From the IMG/VR virus record IMGVR_UViG_2718218129_000003: a stretch of DNA of 38,372 nt; one strand, given 5' to 3'. The stretch comes from a virus (lineage: Duplodnaviria > Heunggongvirae > Uroviricota > Caudoviricetes). The first letter of the stretch is position 1; the number at the start of each line of letters is the position of its first letter. The notes beneath the pieces were generated by a model. The model was not told the origin of the DNA and ran no database searches. It saw only the letters and a program-made list of their open reading frames with translations. Both the position numbers and the translations under genes were made by a program. Shown here one piece after another: positions 2,867 through 30,107 of this stretch.

Positions 2867-3388
2867 GTGTCCTTATCATTTAGTGACTCAGTAGCAATCG
2901 TCGGAATCATTGTAGGAATTTTGTGTATTGTTGTGGGATTGCCCGCACTTCTAACATTTATCCCACAACGGAAAGAGGCAAAAAGATTACGCAGGGAAAG
3001 ATATGCACAAATTCTAAAAGGTAAAAGTTGGAATAACCTTGGAGTTAACCATGGATTTCCTGAGCCATCACTGGACATACGAATTAACACCGTAGATAAC
3101 GCAGGTACACTTCAAGGTGAGATTATCAACTGCCAAAGTAATGTTATGGATTTAGATAAAATAACATTCCATATCAATGGTAAGCTAACCGATAAAGGAA
3201 CTGCATCAATAACACTATGCACTGCTATCGGATGGCGCCAAGTACCGGTGGGAGTTGCGAAATTACGTTATCGCGAAAAAGATGACACACTAGATTTCAT
3301 CTATCTGCATGATCATAAATTCAATCCAACCTTATCATGGGAACTAAGCCTCCCTCGGTTTACTACCTACGGACTAGTTGGCTGCTAA
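2867..3388 (+). CDS. Hypothetical membrane-anchored protein (N-terminal TM helix), AT-rich cargo gene at the prophage edge
   Basis: 173-aa ORF with a GTG start after a purine-rich stretch. N-terminal hydrophobic helix VAIVGIIVGILCIVVGLPALL followed by a basic stretch. Visibly more AT-rich than flanking host and phage DNA. No family recognised. Confidence 0.5.
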   Translation: MSLSFSDSVAIVGIIVGILCIVVGLPALLTFIPQRKEAKRLRRERYAQILKGKSWNNLGVNHGFPEPSLDIRINTVDNAGTLQGEIINCQSNVMDLDKITFHINGKLTDKGTASITLCTAIGWRQVPVGVAKLRYREKDDTLDFIYLHDHKFNPTLSWELSLPRFTTYGLVGC

Positions 3389-3797: not shown

Positions 3798-4898
3798 TCA
3801 TTCTATTTCGAAATCATCAATCCTCACTTCAAGCTCCAGACTGGTCGTAAAACCGTTATCCGGGCTGACGGTATGTGTCAGAGTCGTAATGGTCCATTCC
3901 GCATCATCTATCGGCTGTTTAAAACCACTGACTTTCACTGGCATTTCCGTGTAGAGATCTGCCCGACCTTCCGCCAGTTGTAGCGAGAATGACGCAACGC
4001 CGCGTTGCAGGCGTTCCCACTGCATTTTCGCTGCCCGTTCAGCGTTGCTCCGGTTGGCATAAGTGCGATTAAGTACCAGCACGTTTTCATCCGTACCCAC
4101 CAGGTAATCGCCCTGCTTCGCTTCCGGCTCTTTCTTCTGCTTCTTAGTCCTGCGCTTACGCTTCACCGTTGTGCTTTCTTTCTTCGCGGGTTCGCGGGTA
4201 TGCAACCAACTGGCAATTACGCCCGTATAGGCTCCGCGATCTGCCAGGGTAAAGCGGTGACTGTCGCCGTCCTTACGTGTGATAGTGATCACCGGCAGTG
4301 GTTTACCGCTGACACTTTTACTCTGTCCCTGTCGGATGAATAACAGATTGCCATTTTTCACCGACGCAATAGCACCGTACTGGCGCGCCAGCCGCATCAG
4401 AAAACTGCCGTCACTCTCATTAGTCTGGTCTATATGCTCCACGGGCTTATCCGACAGGTCTTTACCCAGTGCCATCTTCAGCTTGTGACGTACGGCTATT
4501 TCCTTCACTACTTCCCCGACGGTGGTCTTGTGCCACGACTTTTCACGGCGGGTATTCAGCGTTTCACGAAAATCAGCACTTCGCGCCCGAATAGTCAGGC
4601 GGTCCGGTGCGCCAGTGTGTTCAATCTCGTCCACCGTGAATGCCCCTTTCGGGAAAAGCGGCTGCCCCTTCCAGCCCAGCGCCAGCGTAATGACCGCACC
4701 ACGGCGCGGCAGCACGATTTTTCCATCGGCGTCGTCCAGCTCCAGATCAAGCTGGTCCGCTTCAAATCCCCGGTTATCCGTCAGCGTCAGCCCCATCAGG
4801 CGGTTGTCCAGCACAGTGGTGATATCCCTGCCTTCAATACTGATGCTGAATGCCGGAGTTTTGTTGCCTTTGTTAAGCAGTTCAGAGCTGAAATTCAC
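3798..4898 (-). CDS. D: Late control gene D tail protein
   Basis: 366-aa ORF in the syntenic position after U. Size and position match P2 gpD. Confidence 0.85.
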   Translation of the reverse strand: MNFSSELLNKGNKTPAFSISIEGRDITTVLDNRLMGLTLTDNRGFEADQLDLELDDADGKIVLPRRGAVITLALGWKGQPLFPKGAFTVDEIEHTGAPDRLTIRARSADFRETLNTRREKSWHKTTVGEVVKEIAVRHKLKMALGKDLSDKPVEHIDQTNESDGSFLMRLARQYGAIASVKNGNLLFIRQGQSKSVSGKPLPVITITRKDGDSHRFTLADRGAYTGVIASWLHTREPAKKESTTVKRKRRTKKQKKEPEAKQGDYLVGTDENVLVLNRTYANRSNAERAAKMQWERLQRGVASFSLQLAEGRADLYTEMPVKVSGFKQPIDDAEWTITTLTHTVSPDNGFTTSLELEVRIDDFEIE

Positions 4899-10777: not shown

Positions 10778-11344
10778 TCAGGGGGATTCATTGCTCTTAT
10801 TTGCCGGAAATTTTCTATAAATTGTGGAAACACCCACATCAAAAATCAGTGCAATACGCTGTCTTGATTCTCCGGCCTCGAGTAAGCGCCCAATCTGTGC
10901 CCACTGTTCGGTGGTCAACTTAGGACGGCGTCCACCTACTCTGCCTTTATCACGAGCTGCAGCCAGCCCCGCCCTGGTACGTTCAACTATCAGTTCGCGT
11001 TCCATTTCTGCCAGGGCCCCCATGACATGAAAAAAGAAACGGCCCATTGGGGTGCTGGTATCAATACTGTCAGTCAGGCTTCGGAAATTCACGCCACGCT
11101 GGCGCAACTCTTCTATCAGCGTAACAAGATGCCGCATACTGCGCCCCAACCTGTCCAGCTTCCAGACGACCAGCGTGTCTCCTGCCGATAGTGTCCTGAG
11201 CAGTTTTTTCAGCCCCGGTCTGTCGGACTTAGTGCCACTGATTTTATCCTCAAAAATTCGCTCACATCCCGCGCAGTTCAGTGCATTACGTTGCAAATCG
11301 GTGTTCTGGTCATTTGTTGACACGCGTACATAGCCAATAAGCAT
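10778..11344 (-). CDS. Site-specific DNA invertase (serine recombinase, Gin/Pin/Cin/Hin family)
   Basis: N-terminus MLIGYVRVSTNDQNTDLQ with the catalytic Ser region, and a C-terminal HTH (GVSTIYRKF). Adjacent to inverted 26-bp crossover sites. Confidence 0.9.
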   Translation of the reverse strand: MLIGYVRVSTNDQNTDLQRNALNCAGCERIFEDKISGTKSDRPGLKKLLRTLSAGDTLVVWKLDRLGRSMRHLVTLIEELRQRGVNFRSLTDSIDTSTPMGRFFFHVMGALAEMERELIVERTRAGLAAARDKGRVGGRRPKLTTEQWAQIGRLLEAGESRQRIALIFDVGVSTIYRKFPANKSNESP

Positions 11345-11371
11345 GATCATCCCCCTGAATAAAAACCGGAG

Positions 11372-11872
11372 ATGATGCCAGTTAGCCGTAATCTCTGCAT
11401 TTTCATAAACGTTGGTTTGGGAGAAGGTTCGGCATTACCCGTTGGTGTGCCTGTTCCGTGGCCTTCTGCAACACCGCCTACTGGCTGGCTGAAATGTAAC
11501 GGTGCGGCTTTTTCTGCTGAAGAATACCCGGAACTGGCAAAGGCTTACCCGACAAATAAATTGCCTGATTTACGCGGTGAGTTTATTCGTGGCTGGGATG
11601 ACGGTCGTTCAGTAGATACTGGTCGCAGCGTTATGTCTGCACAGAGCGCGCGTGTTGGTTATATTAAATTTGATATGGGAATTTATGGTATTCCTGCAGG
11701 TACGGGCTCACTTATTTTGTCCAATGATATCTTAATTACGGGTCATGACAGTAATGGCTCAAGCCTATTGCTGAACAACTCTAATGAGCGGGCAATTGGT
11801 GAAATGTATGTCGTTCCTGCCGATACTCGCCCACGGAATATTGCATTTAACTATATCGTGAGGGCTGCATAA
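11372..11872 (+). CDS. Alternative (currently silent) tail-fibre C-terminal receptor-binding cassette
   Basis: The ORF frame passes through the left crossover site encoding NVGLGEGS, matching LGLGEAAK at the right site in gene H. It has no credible independent start and would fuse to the H constant region after inversion. Confidence 0.6.
   Translation: MMPVSRNLCIFINVGLGEGSALPVGVPVPWPSATPPTGWLKCNGAAFSAEEYPELAKAYPTNKLPDLRGEFIRGWDDGRSVDTGRSVMSAQSARVGYIKFDMGIYGIPAGTGSLILSNDILITGHDSNGSSLLLNNSNERAIGEMYVVPADTRPRNIAFNYIVRAA
11400..11425. repeat. Invertase crossover site (gix/hix-like), left
   Basis: TTTTCATAAACGTTGGTTTGGGAGAA resembles gix/hix sites (AAACC..GGTTT core) and is an inverted copy of the site at 13227..13252. 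Confidence 0.75.
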
Positions 11873-12474
11873 TGGATAACGCTGTATTAAATAGCGAGTT
11901 TATTGCTACAAAGGCGGGAAATATTACCGTCTATAACTATGATGGCGAAACACGGGAATATATTTCCACTTCAAATGAATATCTTGCCATTGGTGTCGGT
12001 ATCCCTGCATATTCCTGTTTAGATGCCCCTGGCACACATAAGGCAGGTTATGCTATCTGCCGTTCGATGGATTTAAACTCATGGGAATATGTGCCAGACC
12101 ATCGCGGTGAAATTGTCTATAACACCGAAACGGGAGACGCCAAAGAAATCACAACTCCGGGTGATTACCCCGAAAAAACAACCACTATCGCCCCGTTAAC
12201 GCCATACGATAAATGGGATGGTGAGAAATGGGTGACGGATACCGAGGCACAGCATAGCGCCGCAGTAGACGCGGCAGAAGCACAACGTCAGTCACTGATT
12301 GATACTGCAATGGCTTCCATTAGTCTGATTCAGTTGAAATTGCAGGCCGGACGGAAACTGACGCAGGCAGAAACAACCCGACTTAACGCCATGCTGGATT
12401 ACATTGACGCGGTGACGGCAACAGATACCAGCACCGCGCCGGATGTCATCTGGCCTGAACTGCCGGAGGCGTAG
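11872..12474 (+). CDS. Tail fibre assembly protein (partner of the silent cassette)
   Basis: 200-aa ORF whose C-terminus (LDYIDAVTATDTSTAPDVIWPELP) is related to the C-terminus of the convergent Tfa at 12446..12889. Confidence 0.7.
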   Translation: MDNAVLNSEFIATKAGNITVYNYDGETREYISTSNEYLAIGVGIPAYSCLDAPGTHKAGYAICRSMDLNSWEYVPDHRGEIVYNTETGDAKEITTPGDYPEKTTTIAPLTPYDKWDGEKWVTDTEAQHSAAVDAAEAQRQSLIDTAMASISLIQLKLQAGRKLTQAETTRLNAMLDYIDAVTATDTSTAPDVIWPELPEA

Positions 12475-12889
12475 GCCATTCAATATCTGGCGCACCGGAA
12501 GTATCGACCAGCTCCAGTGCGTCCAGATAATCCAGCCACAAATTATATTGCGCCAGTTCCTCACCTTTCAGACGACCAATAGCCGCTTTACCAGGCCATT
12601 GTTTACTGTTCATGTGTTCGTTGGCCTGATTAAGCAATAATTGTCTTTCTGATTCTGCCTGTTGAATAAGTTCTTCATGTGATGGTTGAGGTATTTCAGC
12701 CCATGTGGGAAAACCATTTACCCCTGCAACTCGGATTTTCCCTTGTGGCGGTTCCGCCATATATTTTACAGAAATGTTATCAGGAATATCTAATGCATCA
12801 GCGGGCCATGTTCCATTTACTTCATAAGTATTTTTTAAATTAACAGCATAAAATGCATTTTCCGAGGGGGAATAAATATATTGATTCAT
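12446..12889 (-). CDS. G: Tail fibre assembly protein (gpG-like, expressed orientation)
   Basis: 147-aa ORF directly downstream of H with the Tfa C-terminal motif WLDYLDALELVDTSGAPDIEWP. Confidence 0.75.
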   Translation of the reverse strand: MNQYIYSPSENAFYAVNLKNTYEVNGTWPADALDIPDNISVKYMAEPPQGKIRVAGVNGFPTWAEIPQPSHEELIQQAESERQLLLNQANEHMNSKQWPGKAAIGRLKGEELAQYNLWLDYLDALELVDTSGAPDIEWPTPPAVQAR

Positions 12890-22730: not shown

Positions 22731-24497
22731 ATGAACACCACACTGACACCCGCAGATCTCGATCCCCGTCGGCAGGCCATGCTGCTGTACTTTCAGGGAT
22801 ACCGCGTAGCCCGCATTGCTGAAATGCTGGGCGAGAAAGTTGCAACCGTTCACAGCTGGAAAAAACGCGACAAGTGGGGTGACTATGGGCCGCTGGATCA
22901 GATGCAGCTCACCACCGCCGCACGCTACTGCCAGCTCATTATGAAGGAGCACAAAGAAGGGAAAGATTTCAAAGAGATTGACCTGCTGGCGCGCCAGTCG
23001 GAGCGCCATGCGCGGATCGGCAAGTTTAACAATGGCGGCAACGAAGCCGACTTAAACCCTAACGTCGCCAACCGCAACAAAGGCCCGCGCCGTCAGCCGG
23101 AAAAGAACGTTTTCACCGATGAACAGATTGAGAAGCTGGAAGAAATCTTCCATTCCTCCATGTTCAACTACCAGCGCCACTGGTGGGAAGCCGGAAAAAC
23201 CAACCGCATCCGCAACCTGCTGAAGTCACGCCAGATCGGCGCGACCTTTTACTTTGCCCGTGAAGCCCTGATTGACGCCCTGCTTACCGGACGTAACCAG
23301 ATTTTCCTTTCTGCCAGTAAGGCACAGGCTCACGTCTTTAAGCAGTACATCATAGACTTCGCCAAAGAAGTCGAGGTGGAGCTGAAAGGCGATCCGATGG
23401 TGCTTCCTAACGGAGCCACGCTTTACTTCCTCGGCACCAATGCCCGCACGGCCCAGAGTTATCACGGCAACCTGTATCTGGATGAATATTTCTGGATACC
23501 GAAATTCCAGGAGCTGCGCAAAGTGGCTTCCGGTATGGCTATTCACAAAAAATGGCGACAAACCTATTTTTCCACGCCATCCAGCCTGACACACAGTGCT
23601 TATCCGTTCTGGTCCGGTGCGCTATTCAACCGTGGGCGCAACAAAGCCGATAAGGTGGACATCGACCTGTCCCACAGCAATCTGGCCCCCGGCCTGCTGT
23701 GCGCAGACGGGCAATACCGCCAGATAGTCACCGTGGAAGATGCGGTGCGCGGCGGCTGTAACCTGTTCGACCTTGACCAGTTGCGCATGGAGTACAGCCC
23801 GGACGAATACCAGAACCTGCTGATGTGCGAGTTTGTGGACGATCTCGCGTCCGTGTTTCCGCTCAGCGAGCTGCAGGCGTGCATGGTGGACAGCTGGGAA
23901 GTCTGGACCGACTTTCATGCACTGGCGCTGCGCCCGTTTGGCTGGCGCGAGGTGTGGATCGGTTATGACCCGGCAAAAGGTACGCAGAACGGCGATAGTG
24001 CCGGATGCGTGGTGGTGGCTCCGCCAGCCGTGCCGGGTGGTAAGTTCCGCATTCTTGAGCGTCACCAGTGGCGCGGGATGGACTTCCGCGCCCAGGCTGA
24101 CGCCATCAAAAAACTGACCGAACAGTATAACGTGACCTATATCGGCATCGACTCGACCGGCGTCGGTCACGGGGTTTACGAGAACGTGAAAGCGTTTTTT
24201 CCTGCCGTCAGGGAGTTTGTCTACAACCCCAACGTTAAAAACGCCCTGGTACTCAAGGCCTACGACATTATCAGCCACCGCCGTCTGGAGTTTGACGCCG
24301 GGCACACCGACATTGCGCAGTCATTTATGGCAATCCGTCGCGCTACCACTGCCAGTGGCAACCGCCCGACCTATGAAGCCAGCCGCAGCGAAGAAGCCAG
24401 CCATGCCGATCTGGCCTGGGCAACAATGCACGCACTGTTTAACGAACCGCTGCAGGGCGAATACGCCAATACCAGCAATATTGTGGAGATTTTTTGA
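22731..24497 (+). CDS. P: Terminase ATPase (large) subunit P
   Basis: 588-aa ORF divergent from O. N-terminus …LDPRRQAMLLYFQGYRVARIAEMLG… resembles P2 gpP. Confidence 0.9.
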   Translation: MNTTLTPADLDPRRQAMLLYFQGYRVARIAEMLGEKVATVHSWKKRDKWGDYGPLDQMQLTTAARYCQLIMKEHKEGKDFKEIDLLARQSERHARIGKFNNGGNEADLNPNVANRNKGPRRQPEKNVFTDEQIEKLEEIFHSSMFNYQRHWWEAGKTNRIRNLLKSRQIGATFYFAREALIDALLTGRNQIFLSASKAQAHVFKQYIIDFAKEVEVELKGDPMVLPNGATLYFLGTNARTAQSYHGNLYLDEYFWIPKFQELRKVASGMAIHKKWRQTYFSTPSSLTHSAYPFWSGALFNRGRNKADKVDIDLSHSNLAPGLLCADGQYRQIVTVEDAVRGGCNLFDLDQLRMEYSPDEYQNLLMCEFVDDLASVFPLSELQACMVDSWEVWTDFHALALRPFGWREVWIGYDPAKGTQNGDSAGCVVVAPPAVPGGKFRILERHQWRGMDFRAQADAIKKLTEQYNVTYIGIDSTGVGHGVYENVKAFFPAVREFVYNPNVKNALVLKAYDIISHRRLEFDAGHTDIAQSFMAIRRATTASGNRPTYEASRSEEASHADLAWATMHALFNEPLQGEYANTSNIVEIF

Positions 24498-25531
24498 TGG
24501 GAAAGAGTAAGAAGAACCGAGCTGCGGCGACGAAACAGATCCAGCTTAAAAGTCAAACTACAGCCGAAGCATTCAGCTTCGGCGATCCCGTTCCTGTTCT
24601 GGACCGCCGTGAACTGCTGGACTATGTGGAATGCGTACAGATGGACCGTTGGTATGAGCCGCCCGTCAGCTTTGACGGACTGGCGCGCACCTTCCGCGCC
24701 GCCGTGCATCACAGTTCCCCGATTGCAGTAAAGTGCAACATTCTGACCAGTACCTATATCCCTCATCCGCTGCTCAGCCAGCAGGCTTTTTCGCGTTTTG
24801 TGCAGGACTATCTGGTATTTGGTAACGCCTACCTGGAGAAACGCACGAACCGATTCGGTGAAGTTATCGCTCTTGAGCCTGCGCTTGCAAAATACACCCG
24901 ACGCGGATTAGACCTGGATACCTACTGGTTTGTGCAATACGGTATGACAACCCTGCCGTATCAGTTCACGAAAGGCAGCATTTTTCATCTGATGGAACCG
25001 GACATCAACCAGGAGATCTACGGCCTGCCCGGTTATCTTTCTGCCATTCCGTCAGCCCTGCTCAACGAGTCCGCCACGCTGTTCCGCCGCAAGTATTACA
25101 TTAACGGTAGCCATGCAGGCTTCATCATGTATATGACCGATGCCGCGCAGAACCAGGAAGATGTGAACAACCTCCGCAACGCAATGAAAAGCGCCAAAGG
25201 CCCTGGCAACTTCCGCAATCTGTTTATGTACTCGCCTAACGGCAAAAAGGACGGACTTCAGATTATCCCGTTGTCAGAGGTCGCAGCGAAAGATGAGTTT
25301 TTGAATATCAAGAACGTGAGTCGGGATGACATGATGGCAGCACATCGTGTGCCGCCGCAAATGATGGGGATTATGCCGAGTAATGTTGGGGGGTTTGGGG
25401 ATGTGGAGAAAGCCAGCCGCGTCTTTGTTCGCAACGAGTTGATACCTCTGCAGAAGCGCCTTCAGGAATTGAACGACTGGCTTGGAGAAGAAGTCATGCG
25501 TTTTGAAGATTATAATTTAGGTATTGAATGA
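24494..25531 (+). CDS. Q: Portal protein Q
   Basis: 345-aa ORF overlapping the P stop by 4 nt. Confidence 0.9.
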   Translation: MMGKSKKNRAAATKQIQLKSQTTAEAFSFGDPVPVLDRRELLDYVECVQMDRWYEPPVSFDGLARTFRAAVHHSSPIAVKCNILTSTYIPHPLLSQQAFSRFVQDYLVFGNAYLEKRTNRFGEVIALEPALAKYTRRGLDLDTYWFVQYGMTTLPYQFTKGSIFHLMEPDINQEIYGLPGYLSAIPSALLNESATLFRRKYYINGSHAGFIMYMTDAAQNQEDVNNLRNAMKSAKGPGNFRNLFMYSPNGKKDGLQIIPLSEVAAKDEFLNIKNVSRDDMMAAHRVPPQMMGIMPSNVGGFGDVEKASRVFVRNELIPLQKRLQELNDWLGEEVMRFEDYNLGIE

Positions 25532-25536
25532 TATTT

Positions 25537-25567
25537 AAAAGCCTGTACAAACAGGCTTTTATTCTTT
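25537..25567. terminator. Bidirectional hairpin terminator between Q and the cargo operon
   Basis: AAAAGCCTGT-ACAA-ACAGGCTTTT, with A-runs on one side and T-runs on the other. Confidence 0.55.
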
Positions 25568-25600: not shown

Positions 25601-26266
25601 TTAAAGATCCGGATCTACAGGCTCATGATATAGATTTACAGGGTAATGAATAACTTCATAATTCAGTTGAGTAACTGTGTGAACATGCTGGCTATAAAAA
25701 ACCAATGGATTTTTTTGACAAGGAGTAATCGTTATAGATTTACAGGCATGAATTCTTGGTGCGAATTTATCTAAATGCGCCTTCCAGTTGCTCATCATTT
25801 CATTACATTTTCTATTACGAGTATAGATAATCAATCCACCACTTGCGCTGTCTACGGTCCCTGTACTATATCGTTCAGTGAGTTGAGCATACCCTTTAAA
25901 TAAATAACTATATGAAGATGTATGTTTTTTGGCTTCGCCATGCCAAATATAATCCTTTAGTTTTATTGTAATATCACAATGTCCGCGCTGATTATTTTCA
26001 TGAAATGCTTCAATGCCCATATCTTTATTTTTGATATTGGCCAATAAAATTAAAGTAAGCTGATCTTCTGTTAAATCGAAGTTTAACTTATTTGAATTCT
26101 CTTCTATTTCCTTTACAGCAGAATCAAGTTCAATCCTGACAAATTGTTTGAAATTATCGTACGATTGAAGTGCAAATCTAACACGAGTAATAGAAGCATT
26201 AATACGCTGAAGAAAAATATCATTATCAATATCAGCCAAACTCATTGCTGCAGACATTTTTAACAT
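25601..26266 (-). CDS. Hypothetical protein, third gene of an AT-rich three-gene cargo operon
   Basis: 221-aa ORF sharing one nucleotide with the upstream gene. No recognised family. Contains a D-x13-E-x-K pattern (HCDITIKLKDYIWHGEAKK). Confidence 0.6.
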   Translation of the reverse strand: MLKMSAAMSLADIDNDIFLQRINASITRVRFALQSYDNFKQFVRIELDSAVKEIEENSNKLNFDLTEDQLTLILLANIKNKDMGIEAFHENNQRGHCDITIKLKDYIWHGEAKKHTSSYSYLFKGYAQLTERYSTGTVDSASGGLIIYTRNRKCNEMMSNWKAHLDKFAPRIHACKSITITPCQKNPLVFYSQHVHTVTQLNYEVIHYPVNLYHEPVDPDL

Positions 26267-26712
26267 CAGATAATATCCTTTGATTTAGATTCATCTAATG
26301 TAAAAAAAGGAAATACGAATGACTTATAGTCATACATAAGCTCCCCTGTAAATGGGTTTACTAAAGATTGACTGATTTCCGCCTCAATAACTTCCTCTAT
26401 TTCAAGTTCTACAGGGTCATGAAAATCATCAATGAACCAATAATTGAGTTTTAAAAAATCAACCTTTGGGCTACAAAGAATTTGTATGGCCGGATAGATA
26501 ACCTGCTCATACGTTTCTGGCTGTAAAACCTTATTATAACCACCAGCTATATTAAATAAATCCTTATAACTTAAAGCTATATTTGATGATTTTTTAGCCC
26601 TTGCCTCGATTTCATCGTACAAATAGCAAGCTAACGCCCCAATTTCAGGGCGTTCTGCACACATTTCTTTGATGATCTTGGGCATATCACCATCCTTCAT
26701 TGCTGACTCCAA
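26266..26712 (-). CDS. Hypothetical acidic protein, second gene of the cargo operon
   Basis: 148-aa ORF whose start abuts the stop of the 371-aa gene. No recognised family. Confidence 0.6.
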   Translation of the reverse strand: MESAMKDGDMPKIIKEMCAERPEIGALACYLYDEIEARAKKSSNIALSYKDLFNIAGGYNKVLQPETYEQVIYPAIQILCSPKVDFLKLNYWFIDDFHDPVELEIEEVIEAEISQSLVNPFTGELMYDYKSFVFPFFTLDESKSKDII

Positions 26713-27819
26713 TTATAATATCAGCTTTGTGAGGGTTTCGAAATCATCTTTGGATATACATTTACTTAATATAGCATAGTTAACAGGAGAGCAACTACTC
26801 CCTCCTAGATGCCTGCGGAGTGTTCCCGGAATGATAAGCTCTACGTTATCCGCTAATTGCAGTTTTGGATTATTTCTATCAACTCTAATTCCAATACGAT
26901 ACAAACCAATACTGCCTACTGCTTTGATGCCTTCCTTATTAAACAAATCATCACGTAAGTCTTTAGTGGCCACATTTTTCTTTTCTTTATGCGTAGTCCC
27001 CTCATTCGTCAAAAATGACAAATCAAAGACTTTATAGCTTAATTTTGAATAAGGCAATGAATTTTGTTTGAAAATTGGCTCAATTAACGGATAAAAATCT
27101 TTTTCCGATGATTTAAATTCATAACCGACATGATTATACAATTCACGAATAATGTTACTCTTTGCAAAAGTAACATTATCACCAATAATATTACCATTAG
27201 TATCTACCAAAACATGAATTTTATTAGTAACAGAGTCTAATATACAGACATCAAAACATTGTCGCTTTTCTTTTCGCTTTGCAATAATTTCATCAAACTG
27301 CTTGTATTGCGCAAGTGCTGACGGGGGAATTTTTTCTCTTACAACTAATTCTCTGACAGATGAAAAAACAAGTATTGACTGGGTGTTTTGAATAGAATAA
27401 TTAACAAGTTCAGGTTGATTTTTTACAGCATTTTGCAATTGGACATCATCAAGGATCGAATCAACCAATAATGATGGTTGATTCATCAAATTCCATTGAA
27501 AACTAAATCTGTCATTTAGTGTTTTAATTACACTATTATCTACAGTCAAACTAAATATTGCTTTTTCACCATAAACGACCTGACCAAAAATTAGGTCATT
27601 TACGTTTGCCATAATGCCATCAAACTTTTGCCTATCTTTACTTTTAAGATCAATGAGGCTTTCTAGTATTTTTTCGTTTGTTGCTTCACGCCCCCTACCT
27701 GTTGGCAGCCCTAAAGACGCAATAATTGGCCTTGCAACGTTCCATGTGAAACGTTCAGTTAAGGTCAAGATCGACTTTAACTCAGACTCAGAAAGCACTA
27801 CTGGGACACTACCTGTCAT
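26713..27819 (-). CDS. Hypothetical protein, first gene of the cargo operon
   Basis: Start placed at the ATG preceded by AGGTG (the ORF track starts at GTG 27828). About 368 aa, no Walker A motif, no recognised family. Confidence 0.6.
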   Translation of the reverse strand: MTGSVPVVLSESELKSILTLTERFTWNVARPIIASLGLPTGRGREATNEKILESLIDLKSKDRQKFDGIMANVNDLIFGQVVYGEKAIFSLTVDNSVIKTLNDRFSFQWNLMNQPSLLVDSILDDVQLQNAVKNQPELVNYSIQNTQSILVFSSVRELVVREKIPPSALAQYKQFDEIIAKRKEKRQCFDVCILDSVTNKIHVLVDTNGNIIGDNVTFAKSNIIRELYNHVGYEFKSSEKDFYPLIEPIFKQNSLPYSKLSYKVFDLSFLTNEGTTHKEKKNVATKDLRDDLFNKEGIKAVGSIGLYRIGIRVDRNNPKLQLADNVELIIPGTLRRHLGGSSCSPVNYAILSKCISKDDFETLTKLIL

Positions 27820-27978
27820 AACTTGCACCTAGTCATCCAAAAAGCAATAAGAATTTGCTCTTGTCTTAATTTATCCTTCGATACCTAACAAATTACCTCA
27901 ATGTTGAAAAAATTTGCAAGCCATTTGCTTCTAAAAAGCGACCTTACTCAGAGTGTTACAAAACTAAGCGAGCGCGCG

Positions 27979-27997
27979 CTCGTATCCCCGCCACGCC
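27979..27997. other. Candidate cos (cohesive end) site
   Basis: The reverse complement GGCGTGGCGGGGATACGAG matches the first 13 nt of the P2/186 19-nt cohesive end as I recall it (GGCG(A/T)GGCGGGGAAAGCA.). Adjacent palindrome CGAGCGCGCGCTCG. Confidence 0.4.
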
Positions 27998-28549
27998 TGC
28001 CCGCTTTATGCAGTGATTTTCATGCACCTGCATGACATAAGCGAAAGCCCGCCAGTTCTGGGGGGCCTCAGCAAAAACGATCCTCAAACGATCATGCAAT
28101 TTCATGCAGCATAGTCATGCACAGCCAAGAGAAGTGAAAATCCGTATCTGAATGACCACTTAAAAAACGAAATATACGGGTTTACAAACATGGAGGTTCA
28201 CTGTGAGCGAAGAGCGGAAGTTGCCTTAATTAGGTTACATGGGGGACAAATGTTACTAGCATGATTATGCGGGATACTTACAATACCACGCCTTAATTGC
28301 TTTGTTATCCCACCAGAAAGTCATGGAGCCGCAACTGATAAGAAAATTGTTGTAAAAGTGCCAGTTGGTTACTCTGAATTTCTGCTTAGCCAGGAGAGTG
28401 CCTGCGTTGTCAGCGAATGCGTAAGTTGATCCTTCAATGCAGAAATAGTTCAATTTATTAAACAACACTCCTGGCGGGATTAACGCCGCATCTATAATGC
28501 GTGAGAGTGTGCATGCGCAATTTCAGCAAAAAAATTGAAAATAGCGCTA

Positions 28550-29521
28550 CTAACTTCCCTTTATTTTTAGTTCGTTAAAAATATCTTCGATTACCAATCC
28601 ATTTTTAATTAAATGCTGCACAATATTTTCATATTCTTTGAAATTGTCAATATGCAAGCCATGATCTTTTTCTTTAGCAATTCTCGTGATCACATGTACG
28701 CTATCTGTATAATCAATCTTATTTTTAAGAGCATTGAGCAAACTTATACTTGGATTTAAAGTTGAGATTAGTTTACCAAACTCGGTTTGTAACTCTTTGG
28801 ATTGATGAGTATTAATATAATCTTCAATAAAAGCATCAAAATCTCCTTGCAACTCAACTTTAAGGTTTGCTATATCCTTCATAATATTTTCTAACTCAGA
28901 AGAGTATGGCCGACCATGTTTAAAATCGAATAAAAAAAGATTTGCTTTCTCAATACATTCGCAAATATAAAAAACTGTATAAAGGGAATATTTTTGCTTA
29001 ACTTTTAATTTTCCATAGGCGTAGTGAACCAAAAGATGCTTAGCATTAATAACATTTTTATTTTTTGAAAGTTGATTGTTAGTTGCAGGCGGATAAATTA
29101 CCACATCAACATTATCTAAATTTTGAAAAGTTTTTAAAATAAGAGCCTCAACCTTATTCCAATCGAGGCCCCCATTACCACAGCCTAAAGGTGGTATTGA
29201 TATTGATGTAATTTTTTTTTCATCTATAATTTTTGCTAAAGATTCAAGGCCTTGCGAGATAAAATCATATGTTGATTTTTTTCTCCAACTATCTTTAGTG
29301 GGAAAGTTTACAATTATTTTTCCCTTTTCCTCTACAATTAAAACCTGTCCAATTTTCATTGTACCAGTGGCGCATGCTCTCTTATAAACTTCGAAATTAT
29401 AGGGAAAAGTTTCTTTAAAAGCCAAAGCAATACCCTTTCCCATGACTCCTTGGCAGTTTACAGCATTCACAAGAGCTTGCGATGTAGAGTTTAGAAGATT
29501 TCCGCTTGCATACTTAATCAT
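28550..29521 (-). CDS. darG: DarG-like antitoxin (N-terminal macrodomain ADP-ribosyl hydrolase)
   Basis: Macrodomain motifs GNLL…ALVNAVNCQGVMGKGIALAFK…NFPTK…IPPLGCGNGGLDW. Directly downstream of the DarT gene. Confidence 0.8.
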   Translation of the reverse strand: MIKYASGNLLNSTSQALVNAVNCQGVMGKGIALAFKETFPYNFEVYKRACATGTMKIGQVLIVEEKGKIIVNFPTKDSWRKKSTYDFISQGLESLAKIIDEKKITSISIPPLGCGNGGLDWNKVEALILKTFQNLDNVDVVIYPPATNNQLSKNKNVINAKHLLVHYAYGKLKVKQKYSLYTVFYICECIEKANLFLFDFKHGRPYSSELENIMKDIANLKVELQGDFDAFIEDYINTHQSKELQTEFGKLISTLNPSISLLNALKNKIDYTDSVHVITRIAKEKDHGLHIDNFKEYENIVQHLIKNGLVIEDIFNELKIKGS

Positions 29522-29525
29522 AGAA

Positions 29526-30107
29526 TTAGAACATATAAGTGTTGATCGTTATCAATATACTTAATCCTTGTTGTTTTATCAACCCTTCAACATATTTTTT
29601 TTCGTTATCATTTTTGACAAAGATGCAATGGAAATTTTTCGGCTCGACCGTTACACTTGATAAACACTCAGCCATACATACAGATTTGCATTCTGCATTT
29701 TTATAATCCCTTATATTCATTAGCTCCCAGTCAATTTGGGCCATTCCTTGTTCATAATCTAAGAGGTCTATAACAGAACTGGTGGATAATGGATGTTTAG
29801 GGATAACTTTCCAACCATTTTCTTTGGCAAATGCCCGACAAACCGAAATAATACAAAATGATTTTTCCTTATGATCTTTCAGGACTCTTCCATCAAATGG
29901 ATTCTTAGTAAAGAAATGAAAAGGAACCATTGTTTGCAAATTTAATGCTTCGCGACCTGTTATTATTTCACCGTCGGCCACATCAACAAACTCACCTTTT
30001 ACTGATGCACGAGATCTTAATCCTGTATCTAAAATACTAGGTAGATTATCCATACATGTTAAATGATAGAGAAGATACTGATCTTCAATTCTTTTCCTTT
30101 CGCTCAT
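29526..30107 (-). CDS. darT: DarT-like DNA ADP-ribosyltransferase toxin (DUF4433)
   Basis: N-terminal LLYHLTCMDNLPSILDTGL, plus VPFHFF and a C-terminal AEC motif. Tightly linked upstream of the macrodomain gene. Confidence 0.8.
   Translation of the reverse strand: MSERKRIEDQYLLYHLTCMDNLPSILDTGLRSRASVKGEFVDVADGEIITGREALNLQTMVPFHFFTKNPFDGRVLKDHKEKSFCIISVCRAFAKENGWKVIPKHPLSTSSVIDLLDYEQGMAQIDWELMNIRDYKNAECKSVCMAECLSSVTVEPKNFHCIFVKNDNEKKYVEGLIKQQGLSILITINTYMF

Follow-up and report, generated by a model that had tools for sequence, protein, structure and literature searches.

What is the function of three genes of no recognisable sequence family that lie between the portal gene Q and the cos site of a P2-like prophage? 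An initial annotation of the virus record IMGVR_UViG_2718218129_000003 (IMG/VR), a stretch of 38,372 nucleotides (nt) referred to here as the window, had proposed that these genes form an undescribed anti-phage system. The window is a segment of an Escherichia coli chromosome which carries a P2-like prophage and is 100% identical to strain S40 (NZ_CP010235). We designated the three genes A, B and C, and we favour, with moderate confidence, the view that they constitute a new nuclease-effector anti-phage system in which A would sense DNA, B would serve as an adaptor or inhibit C, and C would be the effector. The proposed defence role is supported as a candidate by the fold and motif of C, which point to a common type of effector, by the conservation of the gene triplet, by defence genes in its neighbourhood, by fusions to TIR and NACHT proteins which indicate the sharing of immune modules, and by the place of the operon in the gpA-gpQ hotspot of P2-like elements.

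Three coupled genes under purifying selection

All three genes are encoded on the minus strand in the order A (26713..27819, 368 amino acids (aa) from its ATG), B (26266..26700, 144 aa) and C (25601..26266, 221 aa). The stop codon of A and the start of B are 12 nt apart, and the stop codon of B overlaps the start codon of C in the sequence TGATG, an overlap kept in most loci. The operon is convergent with Q (24494-25531, plus strand), lies between Q and the cos core at 27985-28006 and has a guanine-plus-cytosine (GC) content of 0.341 compared with 0.548 in the phage backbone. The initial annotation had described exactly this: a block of co-directional, coupled open reading frames (ORFs) that is AT-rich, placed between Q and cos, and convergent with Q. 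It had also noted that none of the three proteins contains a Walker A motif, which was borne out by a motif check; transmembrane segments are absent from them as well. Its description of the proteins as unrecognisable holds at the sequence level, as profile searches of the kind which it had recommended gave no family for A, B or C in PADLOC, Pfam or NCBIfam, but it does not hold at the level of fold, where A and C can be recognised. In PHROGs, the proteins fall into three families of 'unknown function'.

The ATG of A at position 27819 is the RefSeq start and is common to all homologs; an alternative GTG at 27828 would yield 371 aa. For B, the most likely start is the ATG at 26700, which is favoured by a GGAG located 7 nt upstream and by the N-terminus MKDGDM, conserved in a comparison of 35 related loci. 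Alternatives are a TTG at 26712 (148 aa, as in the ORF list) and the RefSeq ATG at 26685 (139 aa). The ORFs are not chance products, because the longest frames found in 2000 shuffled versions of the operon segment reached at most 198 codons (mean 84). Ratios of nonsynonymous to synonymous substitution rates (dN/dS) of 0.12 for A, 0.13 for B and 0.07-0.08 for C, calculated against alleles of 84-90% identity, demonstrate that all three genes are under purifying selection.

Protein C is a predicted restriction-endonuclease-fold nuclease

The predicted structure of C (WP_016239485) revealed a restriction-endonuclease-like alpha/beta core of the PD-(D/E)xK type which resembles BamHI and OkrAI. Residues D98, E111 and K113 are invariant in 36 C sequences, as are E67, D68, E90 and Q128. 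In the model, D98 stands directly before the strand formed by residues 99-103, and E111-x-K113 lies within the strand 106-115. The best structural matches are type II restriction endonucleases (REases) and not lambda-Exo or RecB-type enzymes. HamA, SduA, McrC and CdiA-CT toxin DNases were also found among the structural neighbours, and recombination exonucleases and resolvases of the PD-(D/E)xK type among the lower-ranked matches. Sequence-profile searches of the PDB with A and C retrieved no match. On the basis of the model, C is predicted to be a Mg2+-dependent PD-(D/E)xK DNA endonuclease with a BamHI-like fold, and it is our candidate for the effector of the system. PD-(D/E)xK nucleases are the commonest effectors in defence systems, and several such effectors are among the structural neighbours of C.

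A metagenomic protein of 356 aa (P0220) combines a C-like domain (residues 27-214) with a C-terminal Peptidase_S24 domain, an autoprotease of the LexA/CI type. This fusion could mean that the nuclease exists in a form under SOS control, or that the domain is used for DNA binding.

Protein A is predicted to adopt the RdgC fold

The predicted monomer model of A, a mildly basic protein (pI 8.5), shows the fold of RdgC. RdgC is encoded by a stand-alone gene and forms a ring dimer which binds DNA and antagonises RecA; its cellular function is still debated. In comparison with E. coli RdgC (PDB 2OWL) and phage RdgC-type proteins, A possesses an additional N-terminal helical region of about 85 residues, and whereas rdgC stands alone, the gene of A always has those of B and a nuclease beside it. 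The analogy with RdgC suggests that A would bind DNA, and we propose it as the sensor. Within the searched open literature we found no precedent for an RdgC-like protein as immune sensor; KwaB of the Kiwa system (DUF4868) was considered as such a precedent, for which the Kiwa paper gives no support.

Protein B and the fusion of its domain to a TIR protein in a relative

B is small and acidic (pI 4.4) and evolves faster than A and C; neither Pfam nor PADLOC contains a family that matches it. Its profile matched the C-terminus of a 458-aa protein with TIR and transmembrane parts (TIR-TM) with 45.6 bits, whereas 2000 shuffles yielded no more than 3.5 bits. The gene of this protein overlaps a following C-like nuclease gene whose product is 38% identical to C. 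We infer contacts of B with C as well as of A with B.

The TIR-TM protein belongs to a two-gene variant located on a phage contig from a JGI metagenome (L002, 2765-4764) and consists of a TIR_2 domain, a hydrophobic segment and the C-terminal B-like domain. The pair may represent a distinct TIR-based system which uses the same B-C docking pair.

Searches of the PDB with the B-family profile repeatedly returned designed armadillo-repeat proteins (whole-sequence E 3.6e-6, single repeats not significant), a weak hint that B could be a short helical-repeat protein. Homology of B with the repeats which precede the C domain in NACHT fusions, as a HEAT/ARM repeat, was considered as well and rejected, as the B profile found no match there.

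Shared immune modules and defence neighbours

A C domain forms the C-terminus of NACHT-HEAT STAND NTPases (six clusters among the best 150 matches) and of one NB-ARC-TPR protein. Weak matches to the C-terminal part of the PADLOC candidate PDC-S54 were obtained with distant C homologs (E 1.6e-8 to 9e-6). For A and B of distant variants, PADLOC searches gave nothing better than E 0.035, in the form of single weak matches to Cas models.

Genes of defence type were also found close to the triplet, DarTG of the window being one case. At one locus (L043), it adjoins HamA of the Hachiman system and a Ppl-like ATPase. In a P2-like remnant of Serratia ureilytica (L004, 4262-5900), a PRTase-CE and NADAR pair, likely another defence pair in the same hotspot, is located just across cos from the triplet. 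On a Citrobacter island, a divergent WYL-WCX regulator stands beside the triplet, and Pyocin_S and CdiI genes follow further downstream. A recent survey reported that six of eight randomly chosen unknown loci of the corresponding defence hotspot in P4 satellites were protective.

Distribution and mobility of the triplet

An exhaustive profile search identified 568 clusters of the C family at 50% identity, 445 of them with E<=1e-10; word-indexed searches found just about 40 clusters, nearly all of them enterobacterial. Members occur in Aeromonas, Citrobacter, Bradyrhizobium and Fischerella, so that the named ones belong to the Gammaproteobacteria, Alphaproteobacteria and Cyanobacteria. The gene order A-B-C was kept in 35 of the 36 loci first collected. 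Moreover, every stand-alone distant C homolog with a readable neighbourhood is part of a triplet of the same order and similar protein sizes (about 350-380, 133-150 and 202-221 aa); in most of these distant triplets B and C overlap, and the profiles of A and B detect the adjoining genes.

Among 5426 complete E. coli genomes, 28 (0.5%) carry the cassette, and RefSeq labels A, B and C as 'hypothetical protein' in each of them. P2 itself lacks it. The comparison of this locus across related P2-like elements, another suggestion of the initial annotation, identified the triplet as an accessory cassette whose alleles diverge strongly within near-identical backbones. At one locus (L032), identity reaches 100% for the terminase and 93% for Q, but just 63, 52 and 66% for A, B and C. 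Allele swapping of this kind has been described for hotspot cargo.

In P2-like phages and prophages, among them Klebsiella phage KP12, the triplet is convergent with Q, and a spacing of 150-220 nt between cos and the start of A is kept in about 30 loci. Other carriers are P4-like satellites in Providencia and Rouxiella, Stx1a-converting lambdoid phages, where the triplet is inserted between the antiterminator gene Q and stx1AB, an ArdC/recombinase element in Pantoea, an integrase island in Citrobacter, and a variable chromosomal site in Aeromonas. The triplet is furthermore the main cargo of the 6.1-kb mobilizable Col(Ye4449) plasmid pRGF99-1-6115bp of Klebsiella pneumoniae (NZ_CP075557, L046). 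When deposited phages were searched, megablast gave no match; divergent copies were found by tblastn.

Some of these carriers deserve a closer description. The triplet of phage Stx1_499 (LC567825; L047, 3475-5582), one of seven such phages, is divergent (350, 130 and 221 aa, C 35% identical) and oriented opposite to stx. On the Klebsiella plasmid, gene A spans the origin of the record and is absent from the PLSDB gene table; a RelE/ParE toxin-antitoxin (TA) pair is also aboard. E. coli MS 115-1 (NZ_CP146665, 3090726-3093176) contains the operon at 99.8% identity, so that a convenient native host for knock-outs exists. This strain is reportedly a model for CBASS and NucC.

Proposed mechanism

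We propose that the operon is a self-contained, horizontally mobile cassette directed against phages or, more generally, mobile genetic elements. The overlap of their genes would ensure that B and C are produced in a fixed ratio, and B would dock on C, thereby either holding it inactive or linking it to the sensor. The B-TIR fusion favours a docking function of B towards C over that of a labile antitoxin, and an inhibitory role of B on C is possible. By analogy with RdgC, A, which would be non-enzymatic, may recognise a feature of invading or replicating phage DNA, for example free ends or intermediates of recombination or replication. It would then recruit or release C through B, and C would cut DNA. 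C might cut just the DNA of the invader, as in direct restriction, or the cell might be sacrificed (abortive infection).

We are less confident, and lean somewhat against the idea, that the operon is the founding case of a widespread immune family in which an RdgC-fold clamp sensor is combined with a portable B-C module also present in TIR and NACHT/NB-ARC proteins. If the anti-phage system were confirmed, a widespread family would be added to the bacterial immune catalogue, the RdgC fold would have its first immune role, TIR and NLR-like proteins would have a reusable adaptor-nuclease module in common, and the short interval between cos and Q of P2-like phages would count as a separate cargo slot. 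Carriage by Stx1 phages, small Col plasmids and prophages of clinical E. coli and Klebsiella means that the system could affect the host range in phage therapy and the traffic of mobile elements.

Several observations weigh against a defence system. The similarity of A to RdgC is at the level of fold only (about 10% identity, TM-scores 0.30-0.45). The Pfam RdgC family (PF04381) gave no match at E<=1 for A of the window or for any of 40 family members, and we therefore term A RdgC-like by fold and not a member of the RdgC family. The PD-(D/E)xK fold serves recombination, repair and toxin functions as well as defence. None of the three proteins of the window had a PADLOC v2.0.0 match with E<=1, so a direct tie to a validated system is missing. 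The genomic contexts described above come from a sample of about a dozen non-P2 loci without statistical control. A scan of the leader in front of A (27829..27984) for the sigma-70 consensus gave no match at a threshold of 9/12, and the AT-rich block could be silenced. Finally, its constant place beside cos could in principle reflect a role related to packaging.

Alternative explanations

The layout of a small acidic gene directly upstream of C and overlapping it is classic for a type II TA system, and the operon might thus be an addiction cassette which stabilises the element that carries it, with C as DNase toxin, B as antitoxin and A as regulator. The CdiA-CT toxin DNases among the structural neighbours of C are in line with this, as is the role of the triplet as main cargo of a 6.1-kb Col plasmid. 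That plasmid, however, is already equipped with RelE/ParE; the larger third gene A is strictly conserved with the B-C pair, and the B domain of the metagenomic relative is fused to a TIR-TM protein rather than being a free labile antitoxin. We consider an addiction cassette unlikely, and in part it coincides with the anti-phage system proposed here, many TA systems being defence systems. A module of DNA metabolism, consisting of an RdgC-like modulator of RecA and a structure-specific nuclease for phage replication, recombination or the processing of cos ends, would account for the spacing of 150-220 nt that P2-like elements always keep between cos and the operon. In many phages, proteins of the RdgC type are annotated as recombination-associated, and the PD-(D/E)xK class includes recombination exonucleases and resolvases. 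Against such a module, the cassette is rare and dispensable (0.5% of E. coli genomes, and not in P2), is also found at places remote from cos sites (Stx phages, plasmids and chromosomal islands), and encodes a predicted nuclease whose closest structural matches are type II REases instead of enzymes of the lambda-Exo or RecB type. As the fusions of C to NACHT and NB-ARC proteins and of B to a TIR protein point to immunity as well, this explanation appears improbable and ranks behind the addiction cassette.

The operon could also serve counter-defence or conflict between elements, as a weapon against P4-type satellites or rival P2-like phages, or as an inhibitor of immunity linked to RecA or RecBCD. 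Cargo of the P2 hotspot does act between related phages, as exemplified by the AC1 system against P2; E. coli RdgC is an established antagonist of RecA, and B is acidic (pI 4.4), as DNA-mimicking anti-defence proteins often are. Yet P4-like satellites carry the triplet themselves, and it is found in chromosomal defence islands too. Anti-defence genes are rare in P2 and P4 elements (28 P2 elements), and anti-defence proteins do not typically have an intact nuclease motif. A counter-defence function is therefore the least probable of these explanations, and we regard it as very improbable. The anti-phage system with C as nuclease effector remains the explanation that we prefer.

Surroundings of the operon and other features of the window

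The cos core (27985-28006, minus strand, AAGCGGGCAGGCGTGGCGGGGA) is located 166 nt upstream of the start of A; it marks the boundary of the cargo slot and lies outside the system itself. Nearly all related loci have this 22-mer, identical or nearly so, in front of A, and it is also present in the E1114 clone of Rousset et al. The P2 cos consensus GGCGAGGCGGGGAAAGCAC was searched for as well and is absent from the window at up to 3 mismatches, the window having another cos variant, as in the E1114 clone. Between the cos core and A extends an AT-rich leader of 156 nt (27829..27984, minus strand), the presumed site of the operon promoter.

At the other end of the operon, the terminase ATPase gene P (22731-24497, plus strand) and Q are separated from C by a hairpin that resembles an intrinsic terminator (25536..25561, TAAAAGCCTGT-ACAA-ACAGGCTTTTA, 11 pairs), situated between the convergent Q and C. 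The hairpin terminator noted initially on the Q side of the block was thus found again. It has a T-run on the plus strand and an A-run upstream; because both runs flank the 11-bp stem, the hairpin has the form of a bidirectional terminator that would serve Q as well as the operon.

Across cos from the operon, a remnant of IS5 is followed by DarG and DarT, in agreement with the DarTG system recognised there in the initial annotation. The complete DarT/DarG pair (28550-30107, minus strand) was matched by PADLOC with E 2e-36 and 3e-80, and Pfam agrees. It occupies the old/tin side of cos. RefSeq lists a truncated IS5/IS1182 transposase pseudogene at 28286-28393, between cos and DarG, which indicates insertion activity on this side of the hotspot. 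The published P2 hotspot is defined as gpA..gpQ and hence takes in the slot between cos and Q, whereas old and tin of P2 itself lie on the opposite side of cos. The earlier assignment of the operon to the accessory-gene region of P2 is accordingly correct with respect to the hotspot, but not with respect to old and tin.

In P2 itself and in most of the clones of Rousset et al., cos lies within about 250 nt of the Q stop codon. The pFR109 clone (from E1114) begins about 200 nt from cos on the side of Q, where it reads GGTTTTCAT (reverse complement: ATGAAAACC). A further gene therefore seems to have its start at this place and to be directed towards Q, so that the interval between cos and Q may hold cargo in other P2-like phages too.

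Two further regions of the window attracted our attention. A DNA invertase gene of the Hin/Gin/Cin type (10778-11350, minus strand) adjoins oppositely oriented ORFs resembling tail-fibre C-terminal and assembly genes (11372-12474, plus strand; 12446-12889, minus strand). The region 10778-12889, within which GC falls to 0.40-0.43, looks like an invertible host-range switch. An ORF of 173 aa (2867-3388, low GC of 0.40), whose product has a hydrophobic N-terminus, is located between a chromosomal ybjL-like transporter gene (935-2620) and the tail gene that comes first (3798-4898); it may represent cargo at the end of the prophage where the attachment site lies.

Comparison with known systems

Within PADLOC-DB v2.0.0 (2023) and the open literature that we searched, the system is undescribed. 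Queries with accessions, PHROG ids and RdgC-related terms found nothing relevant in this literature, and the operon is not mentioned in the DefensePredictor paper and its supplements, in the 2026 survey of P2/P4 hotspots or in the iLund4u hotspot preprint. In the list of P2 loci of Rousset et al. (2022, PMC9122126), C (WP_016239485) stands as 'hypothetical'.

The initial annotation had left open whether the operon is the three-hypothetical-protein system reported from P2-like hotspots. The validated system Rst_3HP (hp+hp+hp; pFR109, E. coli E1114; PMC9122126) likewise consists of three co-directional hypothetical genes and occupies the gpA-gpQ hotspot of a P2-like prophage whose cos sequence is the same, a likeness of location and not of ancestry. 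Identity of the two systems was ruled out, since no pairing of their proteins showed similarity (best blastp E 0.42 with matches of 5-50 residues; negative or near-zero bits in phmmer --max) and the protein sizes differ (333, 359 and 227 aa in Rst_3HP; 368, 144 and 221 aa for A, B and C). Moreover, 3HP of E1114 is located on the old/tin side of cos, the place taken by DarTG in the window, and the present operon on the Q side. None of the other systems in Tables S2A and S2B of Rousset et al. corresponds to this operon.

C shares the fold of the type II REases BamHI, OkrAI, BstYI and BglII at 6-9% identity and differs from them by two obligate partner genes. A methyltransferase gene was found neither in the operon nor adjoining its relatives in other contexts, which argues against a classical restriction-modification system; the nearest one in the window is a Dam-like phage gene about 6 kb away, beyond phage gene A (replication endonuclease). 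A modification-dependent, type IV-like variant of the proposed scheme is possible. The TA systems of type II share with the operon the small gene, B, upstream of C and overlapping it.

Hachiman (HamA/HamB), KELShedu (KELA/KELB) and McrBC resemble the proposed system in that a nuclease effector is controlled by a separate partner which senses nucleic acids. As partners they use helicases, GTPases or proteins of other folds that contain NTPase motifs, in contrast to the RdgC-fold partner without NTPase described here, and a third small protein is obligatory only in the present system; PADLOC gave no match to these families. Systems of the Avs, bNACHT and TIR types are related in another way. A, B and C themselves have neither a TIR domain nor a Pfam match to NACHT or NB-ARC, and a P-loop occurs only in fused C relatives. 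Relatives of C, however, end NACHT-HEAT and NB-ARC-TPR proteins, and a relative of B ends a TIR-TM protein, so that the operon shares modules with these immune systems without being a member of them.

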